64,000 bases of DNA. It comes from a virus. Below, piece by piece: positions 48,946 to 51,055 of the stretch. Position 1 is the first letter of the stretch; the number at the start of each line of letters is the position of its first letter. The stretch lies in UHGV virus genome UHGV-0171787. The stretch is one strand, 5' to 3'. A program made the translations under genes and the position numbers. The notes beneath the pieces are model-generated. The model saw only the letters and a program-made list of their open reading frames with translations, had not been told where the DNA came from and did not search any database.

Positions 48946-50976
48946 TTAACCTCTATTCAATGAACATTTAGGAGAATTACAATAAACTTGATTCATAGAA
49001 CCAAGCGTACAACTTTCAGCATCGCGCCACGGAATCTGCTTAAAACACTCTGAGCAGTATCCGAGGGTTGACCACATTGCTTTGGTGAAGTCAGTGCTTC
49101 GGTTTCCGTCGAAGCTGACAACAGTTTTGCGGAGAGCTGTTCGTAATTCAGGAAACACACCTGCTTTCTCAGCAGGTTCCTCCTTTTTTGGCTTAGTTGA
49201 GATTGCAAAAACACTGTTGCTACGTTTCTCAACATAAGCATCAACAACATCCTCCAGAGTGATGCCTGTCTGTTTCGCTGAGGAAGGTAATACAGTCATA
49301 CGACCGATCATATCTTCAGTTACACGTAAAGCAAATTCAGGACGACGGGAGTTTGTTGTATCTGTTGCTTTAATCCAGACATAACCATCTTTGATCGTAG
49401 CATTAGATACTTTCTTCTTTACTTCTACAGCGCAGACTTTACAGATATCTTCACCACGAAGACGGCTGAGTTCTTCATCGAACTCATTCTCTGTTTTAAC
49501 TTCACCACAGATTTCACAAACACCAATAGGAGTCTCCTCCTCTTCTTCCTCTTTAGGTTTAGTCAAACCTTCCAGACATTCAGGATGCCAGTAGCACTGA
49601 TATGCGAAGACTGCTTTAGGTGCATCCTTCCAATCAATGTGTTTGTCACAACCGCCACAATCACCATGAGAATGTGCTTCCCAGAATTTACGAGTGATAG
49701 TAACGCCATTCTTGTTAACGAAACTATCATTCATATCAAAAGGGATATCATCATCGAAGTCAGCAGTAGTTGACTCAGGCTCCTTTTTCTCCAGAGATGG
49801 GTCAACAAAACGACCTGCTGTGATCACTAAACGAACCATAGCATTAACTTCGGAGATGCAGGATACTGTCCCACGGTAAACAATTTTAGGATCTTTCAGT
49901 GCGTCCTGATAAGCCTTAATGTCTACGTTATGAACATCACCTTCGATATACTCTTGAGACTTCTCATCGTAGATATAACCGATCATCTTACCACGAGAAG
50001 GAACAGCACCAGAAGTTGCATAAGGAACAAACTCATGCGGAGTGATCTCTACAGTCATATCGCGACGGATATCAATGTTTCGATCGCTTGCGATTTTGTT
50101 TTGACTTACTACTGCGTTTCTTCGACGAACATCTGCCGCTGTCACTCCCGGCTTCGTGTCGTAAGGATTGCTTGTACTGCTTTTTGAGGAGCTTTGATAG
50201 CTGCTTTGGCTGTAGTTGTTCGAGTAGTAACTGGCCCAACGATTGACTACCGTAAAAACCGGAAGCTCATGGGCGACCTCTTCAACCAATGTCATGCTAT
50301 TGTTTGACATGTCAAAGATATACTCTGTACCAACCTTACATTCAAAATGCTCATCAATACGGTTCTTGTGAGACTTTGAACGCTTCAGAATCCACATCAG
50401 CATATCTTCTTCAGAAGCACCAAACCAATCTTTATTACAACGTGCGAGATGGAAAGGACGTTCTTCGTTACGGATGATATGAAGACGGTTATCAGAAGCA
50501 TCATGCCAGATTAAGGTGAAAGCACCATCCAGCTTTTGAATAGTCTCTGCTGCACCAATAGTGTTAATAGAGTGGCAGATGTTCTCACTGTCTACCTCGA
50601 AGTTTTTACTGTCAGGTAACAGGTCTTGGTCTATCAAGGTTCCGTTATGAACCAGAGTGATGTTACCGTGTTGGAAAGGATGGGCGTTCTTGGCGTTAAC
50701 TGCACCTTTCGTTGCATGACGGCTGTGACCAACAATCCATGAAGGTGCTACAGTGTAAGATGTTTCACCAGTGGTATGCTTCTTATACTCATCTTGTAGG
50801 ATGAATGCGAAAGAAGGAAGAGCTTCTTTATAAGTGAAGACTTCCTTAGTACTTTTACGCTGACCAAAGATACCAGAGGAATGTTGTCCTCGGAATACTC
50901 CAGCATAAAAGAGTTGGTTGAATACGTCTAAATCGGTGCTTGACAGATTGCCGCCAGCTAATACGATGCCACAAAT
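48946..50976 (-). CDS. Class-II (Ntn) glutamine amidotransferase-like protein with Cys-rich C-terminal region; probable ATT (AUU) start
   Basis: Track ORF begins at a TTG at 50637, but the same frame encodes CGIVLAGG...FRGQHSSGIF...GHSRHATKG...NAHPF...LVHNG upstream; in-frame TAG-AAA-ATT-TGT with AGGTGG 8 nt before ATT; C-terminal half has CxxC pairs. Confidence 0.6.
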   Translation of the reverse strand: MCGIVLAGGNLSSTDLDVFNQLFYAGVFRGQHSSGIFGQRKSTKEVFTYKEALPSFAFILQDEYKKHTTGETSYTVAPSWIVGHSRHATKGAVNAKNAHPFQHGNITLVHNGTLIDQDLLPDSKNFEVDSENICHSINTIGAAETIQKLDGAFTLIWHDASDNRLHIIRNEERPFHLARCNKDWFGASEEDMLMWILKRSKSHKNRIDEHFECKVGTEYIFDMSNNSMTLVEEVAHELPVFTVVNRWASYYSNNYSQSSYQSSSKSSTSNPYDTKPGVTAADVRRRNAVVSQNKIASDRNIDIRRDMTVEITPHEFVPYATSGAVPSRGKMIGYIYDEKSQEYIEGDVHNVDIKAYQDALKDPKIVYRGTVSCISEVNAMVRLVITAGRFVDPSLEKKEPESTTADFDDDIPFDMNDSFVNKNGVTITRKFWEAHSHGDCGGCDKHIDWKDAPKAVFAYQCYWHPECLEGLTKPKEEEEEETPIGVCEICGEVKTENEFDEELSRLRGEDICKVCAVEVKKKVSNATIKDGYVWIKATDTTNSRRPEFALRVTEDMIGRMTVLPSSAKQTGITLEDVVDAYVEKRSNSVFAISTKPKKEEPAEKAGVFPELRTALRKTVVSFDGNRSTDFTKAMWSTLGYCSECFKQIPWRDAESCTLGSMNQVYCNSPKCSLNRG

Positions 50977-51055
50977 TTTCTAATCCACCTGAAGGGTAAA
51001 CCCTTTCATCTAATTAACCTTTAAATTGTGCCCCTTTACCAGAGGCACCCATTGA

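Follow-up and report, generated by a model that had tools for sequence, protein, structure and literature searches.

A conserved AUU codon as the probable translation start of a glutamine amidotransferase gene in phiEco32-type phages

The amidotransferase gene and its start site

The window analysed here is a 64,000-nucleotide (nt) stretch of the virus genome UHGV-0171787. Our subject is a glutamine amidotransferase (GATase) gene on its minus strand that probably begins translation at an AUU codon, placed directly before the codon for its catalytic cysteine. The region is ~96% identical to phiEco32-type podophages (Kuravirus, Gordonclarkvirinae), with 98 matching phage records. The gene belongs to a leftward early operon that runs through a COOH-NH2 ligase, a hypothetical gene, an amidoligase, the glutamine amidotransferase, two small genes and an ATP-grasp enzyme, in that order (Table 1). 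As summarised in PMC10580990, Iyer et al. (2009) suggested cell-wall modification or a peptide-like metabolite for the combination of amidoligase and GATase. The protein opens with a class-II, or N-terminal nucleophile (Ntn), GATase domain, which is followed by a C-terminal region of ~430 amino acids.

Table 1 Features of the GATase locus, in window coordinates. SD, Shine–Dalgarno sequence; ORF, open reading frame; CDS, coding sequence.
Feature	Position	Strand	Details and basis
Amidoligase gene (Pfam Amidoligase_2), upstream of GATase	51056..52159	-	GATase partner in the same operon; ORF list and Pfam
Upstream hairpin GTGCCTCT-GGTAA-AGGGGCAC	51028..51048	-	RNAfold; intergenic, just past the amidoligase stop codon
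Invariant leader block, 57 nt	50969..51025	-	100% identity across Kuravirus, Nieuwekanaalvirus and Suseptimavirus
In-frame mini-ORF ATG AAA GGG TTT ACC CTT CAG GTG GAT TAG (MKGFTLQVD*)	50980..51009	-	Translation
Hairpin AAGGG-TTTA-CCCTT	50992..51005	-	-5.3 kcal/mol; 3' end 1 nt from SD and 15 nt from ATT
SD AGGTGG	50985..50990	-	8-nt spacer ATTAGAAA before ATT
In-frame stop TAG	50982-50980	-	Followed by AAA at 50979-50977
ATT, proposed AUU initiation codon	50974..50976	-	ATG at the homologous codon of outgroups; invariant in 97/97 records
TGT, catalytic Cys1 codon of the Ntn amidotransferase domain	50971..50973	-	CGIV invariant; all tblastn matches begin here
TTG, false start of ORF finders and several GenBank records	50635..50637	-	Codons upstream of it under purifying selection
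Full GATase CDS, 676 codons plus stop	48946..50976	-	Translation and Pfam; length and start equal to phiEco32 RefSeq CDS phi32_83

On the minus strand the start region reads ...CCCTTC AGGTGG ATTAGAAA ATT TGT GGC ATC GTA TTA GCT GGC GGC... and translates as ...QVD*KICGIVLAGG..., with only AAA and ATT between the stop and the Cys codon. An earlier note, made from the letters alone, had described the string TAG-AAA-ATT-TGT with AGGTGG placed 8 nt before ATT, and had seen neither ATG nor GTG nor TTG from the in-frame stop to the Cys codon; minus-strand letters and coordinates agree with it on both points. It had also remarked that the ORF finder began the gene about 340 nt downstream at a TTG, and that codon indeed lies 339 nt from ATT and opens an ORF of 563 amino acids (48946..50637). 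The motifs quoted there, GHSRHATKG, NAHPF and LVHNG, are all encoded upstream of this TTG. By translation, a TTG-started protein would lack Cys1 and most of the catalytic motifs. AUU stands in a start context, with an SD at 8 nt, inside the 5-10 nt range for such starts, and no canonical in-frame alternative that would give a functional protein, and the Cys codon follows it directly (ATT-TGT here; ATG-TGT or ATG-TGC in 82 of 124 homologue clusters).

Orthologues share the weak codon; it is not a sporadic occurrence. The 32-mer TTTACCCTTCAGGTGGATTAGAAAATTTGTGG, which takes in a hairpin arm, the SD, the spacer, ATT and the Cys-Gly codons, is identical in all 97 E. coli/Shigella phage records containing the locus. 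Aeromonas phage BUCT695 keeps ATT in both of its records, with two changes elsewhere, so the conservation of ATT in related phages that the earlier note had wanted checked is in place. Scanning IMG/VR for the pattern GGATTAGAAANNNTGTGGNAT with the start triplet left free returned ATT alone among true homologues. Six outgroups (Proteus P59, Cronobacter GAP52, Salmonella SE131, Vibrio SJSY21, Aeromonas 4_4572 and PKM.Lu.22.1) carry ATG at the homologous codon, followed by TGT or TGC (MCGIV...); their GATase domains are 50-59% identical to the window's, and their annotated CDS begins at this ATG. Orthologues with ATG had been named in advance as grounds for rejecting the ATT start. Distant orthologues of this kind do exist, but they mark the position as a start and not as an error.

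The segment between ATT and the downstream TTG behaves as coding sequence. For the 112 codons from Cys to TTG (codons 2-113), the ratio of non-synonymous to synonymous change (dN/dS) is 0.04-0.09 against KBNP1711 and ECBP2, with proportions of synonymous (pS) and non-synonymous (pN) differences of 0.65-0.75 and 0.13-0.16; the full range of dN/dS for this segment is 0.031-0.093, with pS up to 0.75. Because dN/dS is low while synonymous change is near saturation, these codons are translated in the GATase frame, and because they are under strong purifying selection and hold the catalytic motifs, the TTG is not the real start. The domain scores 54.6 bits against Pfam GATase_6, where 27 is the cut-off, and 27.9 bits against GATase_7, where it is 25. 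A profile of ten phage sequences also matched GlmS, PurF and AsnB, a remote similarity at E ~1e-7, and its alignment with the GlmS glutaminase domain (1xff) paired GHnRyATkG with AHTRWATHG, NAHPf with NAHPH, vHNG with VHNG and evDsE with ETDTE. The catalytic and oxyanion residues (GlmS Arg73, Asn98-Gly99 and Asp123) are matched at positions that are invariant in the phage alignment, and Cys1-Gly2-Ile3-Val4 is invariant in all aligned homologues. For the Ntn alpha-beta-beta-alpha fold, a single-sequence AlphaFold model gave no usable picture, at a mean pLDDT (predicted local distance difference test) of 35.5. Cysteine as the second residue permits the action of methionine aminopeptidase.

The outgroup ATG, the dN/dS values, the catalytic motifs, the invariance of ATT and the recurrence of weak starts in the family (below) together support initiation at the ATT directly before Cys, as had been proposed. 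We put the probability that this AUU is the translation start of the GATase gene at about 0.85. The call is unusually secure for one made without proteomics, since the enzyme's chemistry leaves a single codon at which the N-terminus can lie.

In phiEco32 itself the gene has already been annotated from the ATT. RefSeq (NC_010324) draws phi32_83 from the same ATT with the same 2031 nt, and derived annotations of the BASEL phages, SU10 and LAMP agree; we found no literature discussing or testing this start, in a search that excluded the primary phiEco32 papers (Savalia 2008, Pavlova 2012). Most related records, ~80% of those listed, annotate a truncated protein. The annotated start is the TTG in Paul, an in-frame ATG at codon 11-12 in SU7, ECBP2 and BUCT695, a GTG at codon 27 in YF01, and further in for KBNP1711 and EP335; such late starts, 10 to 113 codons in, also occur in Pseudomonas phages O4 and FBPa8 and in Klebsiella phages Klyazma and Asterion. 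Among the cultured phages with ATT or ATC that we examined outside the phiEco32 group, every annotation omits the first 13-36 codons. The deposited proteins lack the catalytic Cys1 because they are annotated from downstream ATG, GTG or TTG codons, and since gene callers do not accept ATT or ATC as starts, the error recurs systematically. Proteomic searches inherit it, as in the SU10 study, which found the GATase as an early product with 9 peptides and an expected mass of 63.8 kDa (PMC4281155).

The invariant leader

The 57-nt leader block is an exact match between the window and SU7, within 200-nt flanks that are 76% and 68% identical and a genome-wide alignment that averages 78%. It contains the mini-ORF, the hairpin, the SD, the spacer and ATT-TGT-GG. 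Some 48 non-coding positions are unchanged while adjoining synonymous sites are near saturation, which indicates strong constraint on the leader. Even BUCT695, which belongs to a different family (Grimontviridae) and whose GATase domain is 53% identical, keeps ~92% of the leader, and a distant homologue, L180, has 19 nt (GGATTAGAAAATTTGTGGC) in common with the phiEco32 leader behind a different hairpin. Within the 64-kb window the leader is not repeated elsewhere at up to 3 mismatches.

The hairpin that abuts the SD has counterparts in BUCT695 (AAGGG-TTAA-CCCTT) and in homologue L212 (AAGGGA-TTTA-TCCCTT). The mini-ORF encloses both hairpin and SD and ends 3 nt before ATT; BUCT695 keeps it with two non-synonymous changes and without the mini-ORF's own SD. 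Further upstream, the intergenic hairpin carries one compensatory change in SU7 and ECBP2, from GTGC...GCAC to GCGC...GCGC. No T-run follows this hairpin, and the SU10 supplementary table has no terminator at this place. We rejected a long-range pairing around the start predicted by RNAfold (GGUUAAU..GAUG with CAUC..AUUAGCU), which was not significant (z = -1.7) and is not conserved in BUCT695.

No Rfam family and no promoter or terminator consensus explains the conserved block. An Rfam 15 covariance scan gave two sub-threshold chance matches (16.7 and 11.3 bits, against gathering thresholds of 44 and 70), and a scan for sigma-70 promoters and terminators found no minus-strand promoter. An antisense sigma-70-like promoter, TTGACA-16-TACGAT with 10/12 matches (50940-50967, plus strand), is directed into the leader; it was set aside as within chance expectation, and its -35 element is not conserved in Nieuwekanaalvirus or Suseptimavirus. 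The phiEco32 gp36 promoter (tAATGTAtA) was not found in the leader, published gp36 promoters precede genes 6, 13, 26, 40, 58 and 68 and not gene 83, and the SU10 supplementary table lists neither promoter nor terminator at the GATase leader. A conserved motif like TTTAAATGTAAA, which resembles tAATGTAtA, lies ~20-30 nt upstream of the GATase ATG in Grimontviridae phages (L027-L031, L041, L045), and the phiEco32-type leader holds a degenerate version of it, TTTAAAGGTTAAT, at 51011-51025. In these ATG-start lineages the motif may, judging by its sequence, be a phage-sigma promoter directly before the gene.

Co-conversion by a homing endonuclease was considered as a source of the leader's conservation and rejected: the intact HNH gene of YF01 lies downstream of the GATase gene and not in the leader. 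In BUCT695, an unannotated and degenerate remnant resembling an HNH/helix-turn-helix homing endonuclease lies between the ligase and the GATase leader (L007:2305-2500). It reads MDKVLKKITHQGDCWLWTGCINSDGYPKE and then, frame-shifted, ...LSQSKVAKLVGCSQTHVSKLELGKYSL.

The wider family and the rest of the window

We surveyed start codons across the gene family using two IMG/VR profile scans and GenBank examples, which gave 124 non-redundant homologues matching from Cys1. The codon before Cys1 is ATG in 82, ATT in 23, ATC in 9, TTG in 7 and GTG in 2; AUA was not found in any of the 124 clusters. ATT and ATC together account for 32 of the 124, about a quarter of the pooled set, and for 34% of the loci in the second scan. 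A canonical codon (ATG, GTG or TTG) is missing from the frame between the nearest upstream stop and Cys in 8 of the 10 ATT/ATC loci that the first scan found outside the phiEco32 group, and the second scan gave the same result for ~two-thirds of its ATT/ATC loci; in L212, TAA stands directly before ATT. Weak starts seem to have originated repeatedly, because the ATT/ATC leaders are otherwise unrelated in sequence. On a rough neighbour-joining tree of 130 taxa, Fitch parsimony required ~27 changes from weak to canonical starts or back, a noisy figure that is probably an over-estimate. A scan of bacterial genomes for homologues returned only 7 phage-like contigs, so a cellular comparator is missing.

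Leaders with weak start codons differ from AUG leaders in their upstream elements, under tests whose p-values take the leaders as independent and ignore shared ancestry. Median pairing between SD and anti-SD is -7.95 kcal/mol for AUU/AUC leaders versus -6.0 kcal/mol for AUG leaders (p=2e-4). An SD-abutting hairpin is present in 18/32 AUU/AUC versus 2/82 AUG leaders (Fisher p=2e-10), and the 26 nt upstream of the SD fold with a median of -5.3 versus 0.0 kcal/mol (p=7e-11). These hairpins of 5-8 bp directly adjoin the SD, with 3' ends at 10-22 nt (mode 14) upstream of the start. Stems differ by lineage: AAGGG/CCCTT in the window phage, and elsewhere GCCCT/AGGGC, GACTC/GAGTC, AACCTC/GAGGTT, GAACCT/AGGTTC, GAGGTC/GACCTC, AAAGCC/GGCTTT, GTAGCC/GGCTAC and CAAGCT/AGCTTG. 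Such divergence is what a structural constraint predicts.

Start codon and hairpin also switch together between close relatives. In Paundecimvirus, O4 (ATC) and FBPa8 (ATT) share one hairpin leader and PA11 (TTG) has no hairpin; in Citrovirus, Klyazma (ATC) and Asterion (ATT) have the hairpin and CVT22 (TTG) and Pecta (ATG) do not. The same holds for an 82%-identical pair, contig L122 (ATT, with hairpin) and GP100 (ATG, without). This co-switching within genera helps with the ancestry problem.

Two further regularities concern the same leaders. Very often a stop triplet falls at -7 to -5, in the spacer between SD and start, and in most cases it terminates no real ORF, as in GGAGGA-TAG-TCAA-ATT, GGAGA-TGA-GAAA-ATT and GGAGGA-TAA-AATT-ATC; ATT/ATC leaders of this kind are L078/L122, L097/L126, L101/L138, L140, L141, L072, L129, L151, L181, L071 and L086. 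Hairpin loops of ATT/ATC leaders are often GTT.

Outside the leader, the window holds other islands of exact identity to SU7. A 55-nt match at 58076-58130, with a flank of 70% identity, is non-coding and lies just past the minus-strand ORF 58136-58333; it carries the inverted repeats GATAGGA...TCCTATC and AAGGA...TCCTT and is possibly a small RNA, terminator or operator. Matches of 58 nt (45518-45575) and 76 nt (13563-13638) sit within regions of 61-81% identity, the former spanning the junction of ORFs 44293-45543 and 45509-45697 on the minus strand. An 88-nt match at 33083-33170 contains a long inverted repeat, AAATAGAGAAT...ATTCTCTATTT; the SU7 record has terminators at the equivalent position, and the island is probably a bidirectional terminator between convergent late and early/middle gene blocks. 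In the GATase protein itself, no Pfam match was found for the C-terminal region (window 48946-50250, minus strand). It includes an acidic stretch, KPKEEEEEE, and several paired-Cys motifs (CGGCDKH...HPEC, CEICGEV...CKVCA and CSECFKQ...CNSPKC) that suggest zinc-ribbon-like modules.

Mechanism, alternatives and known systems

In the mechanism we favour, the strong SD AGGUGG 8 nt upstream of AUU would position the 30S subunit de novo and the initiator tRNA would read the near-cognate AUU. Removal of formylmethionine would then leave Cys1 at the N-terminus, where class-II amidotransferases need it as nucleophile, and the mature N-terminal peptide, with Met gone, is predicted to be CGIVLAGGNLSSTDLDVFNQLFYAGVFR. 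With AUU both weak and discriminated against by IF3, GATase translation would be deliberately low or conditional, and the stronger SDs of AUU/AUC leaders would fit partial compensation for the weak codon. Initiation from AUU or AUC reached 1-2% of the AUG level in one E. coli reporter system, with AUC starts yielding an N-terminal Met (bioRxiv 10.1101/063800), and in a second AUU lies 4-8-fold below AUG (PMC3592434). Candidate roles for the hairpin are holding the SD single-stranded, docking on the 30S platform for a longer dwell time, and shielding a poorly translated ribosome-binding site from RNase E. Because many lineages of this gene family show the arrangement of hairpin, SD and AUU/AUC, it looks like a selected design and not a lesion.

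From the sequence comparisons we infer initiation at AUU, Met removal, an expression-tuning purpose and a role for the hairpin; the purpose would be to keep the synthesis of a glutaminase that could be wasteful either low or dependent on IF3. More tentatively, and at somewhat less than even odds, the hairpin, strong SD, A-rich spacer of ~7-8 nt and AUU/AUC may form a portable initiation cassette that has been gained and lost repeatedly, its hairpin being required or regulatory. Phage Ntn-amidotransferase genes have possibly undergone 10 or more independent cassette switches.

De novo initiation has to be weighed against the idea that AUU is reached mainly by termination and reinitiation from the 9-codon mini-ORF, which would then be a regulatory element: ribosomes would stop at UAG and restart 3 nt on, held by the SD inside the mini-ORF. 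The UAG-AAA-AUU geometry is that of the thrS-infC junction (UAA-GGU-AUU), where reinitiation and de novo initiation are reported as about equal contributors (PMC3592434). The mini-ORF has its own AAAGG 8 nt upstream, lies wholly inside the invariant block and is kept in BUCT695, and L180 likewise reads TAG-AAA-ATT, with the upstream gene's stop in the hairpin loop. Against this, the BUCT695 mini-ORF lacks an SD and both of its changes alter the peptide. The pattern across the family cannot come from coupling, since a start-bearing upstream ORF that ends near the start is absent from most other AUU/AUC leaders, and their stop at -7 usually closes nothing; the same leaders rule out coupling through a mini-ORF or a stop at -7 as a general mechanism. 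We consider reinitiation unlikely as the main route to AUU, although by analogy with infC it may contribute in this phage.

The other accounts dispense with an AUU start. Since the mini-ORF is in frame with the GATase, translation from its ATG with read-through of UAG would yield a 12-residue propeptide (MKGFTLQVD-X-KI), to be removed autocatalytically as in B. subtilis PurF, and propeptide processing is established for some class-II GATases. This would require efficient UAG suppression, and no tRNA genes were found in the 64-kb window; in the outgroups ATG immediately precedes Cys and nothing extends the protein N-terminally, in-frame stops occur at -1, -3, -5 or -6 in other AUU/AUC leaders, which have no in-frame ATG, and in the window the TAG two codons before Cys closes off any PurF-type extension from a canonical start. 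We regard read-through as very improbable. Equally hard to credit is a real start at a downstream canonical codon (TTG 50637 or its equivalents), with the N-terminal Ntn segment an untranslated relic. ORF finders and most GenBank annotations give such a start, but the codons chosen vary by record and are not conserved, codons 2-113 evolve as translated sequence, and the loss of Cys1 and the Arg, NAHP and HNG motifs would leave a domain that cannot be a glutaminase. A sequencing or assembly error for ATG, the base-call problem raised by the earlier note, would need only a single base change; with the identical sequence present in IMG/VR contigs and in 97 phage genomes that were sequenced independently, ATT is genuine and the chance of error practically nil.

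Several observations weigh against initiation at AUU as we describe it. Full invariance of the leader makes ATT inseparable from other constraint on the block. An alternative hairpin, GGUUUACC/GGUGGAUU, would sequester the SD and has about the same stability in this phage (-6.1 vs -5.3 kcal/mol); we rejected it as a conserved structure, both BUCT695 substitutions breaking it (-6.1 to -2.3 kcal/mol) with AAGGG/CCCUU kept. As a whole, the leader is not predicted to fold significantly better than shuffled sequences (z = -1.7), and the survey statistics carry the shared ancestry noted above. The SU10 proteomics is silent on the N-terminus, because its database held only the truncated form.

Taken as a single gene, the AUU start looks like an unpublished case of a known kind of start. 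The invariant leader and the family-wide link between AUU/AUC, strong SD and hairpin appear to be undescribed so far and are worth experimental follow-up. The repeated and reversible use of AUU/AUC, with stronger SDs in compensation and a hairpin at a fixed position, suggests that selection favours a specific translation rate of this enzyme, low or conditional. The family is a ready comparative system for what lets bacterial ribosomes use near-cognate starts and, if the cassette reading is true, its Cys1-fixed N-terminus would make it a natural 'ruler' for bacterial non-AUG initiation.

Among known systems, phi32_83 of phiEco32 is the orthologue, with the same leader and the same ATT start, which there is annotation only. 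GlmS, PurF and AsnB share the (M)CGIV... N-terminus, the R-x-A-T-x-G, NAHP, HNG and D-x-E motifs and the Pfam GATase_6/7 assignment; unlike them, the phage domain is fused to a unique ~430-amino-acid C-terminal region and is encoded beside amidoligases and an ATP-grasp enzyme. The cellular GlmS, PurF and AsnB genes start with AUG. Only two non-canonical starts, those of infC and pcnB, are confirmed in E. coli (bioRxiv 10.1101/063800). E. coli infC, which encodes IF3, resembles the phage gene in its AUU with SD, in the stop of the upstream frame 3 nt before AUU and in the conservation of the weak codon among relatives; its AUU gives several-fold lower translation than AUG (PMC3592434). Whereas infC is autoregulated by its own product, the product here is an amidotransferase, and for that reason IF3 sensitivity would read host state and not feedback; the upstream frame here is a 9-codon mini-ORF and not a full gene, and an SD-abutting hairpin is part of the design. 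The simplest functional parallel is the AUU of E. coli pcnB, where a weak start keeps enzyme level low, but pcnB is a single chromosomal gene, whereas here ATT and ATC recur across a phage gene family, switching with ATG, TTG and GTG.

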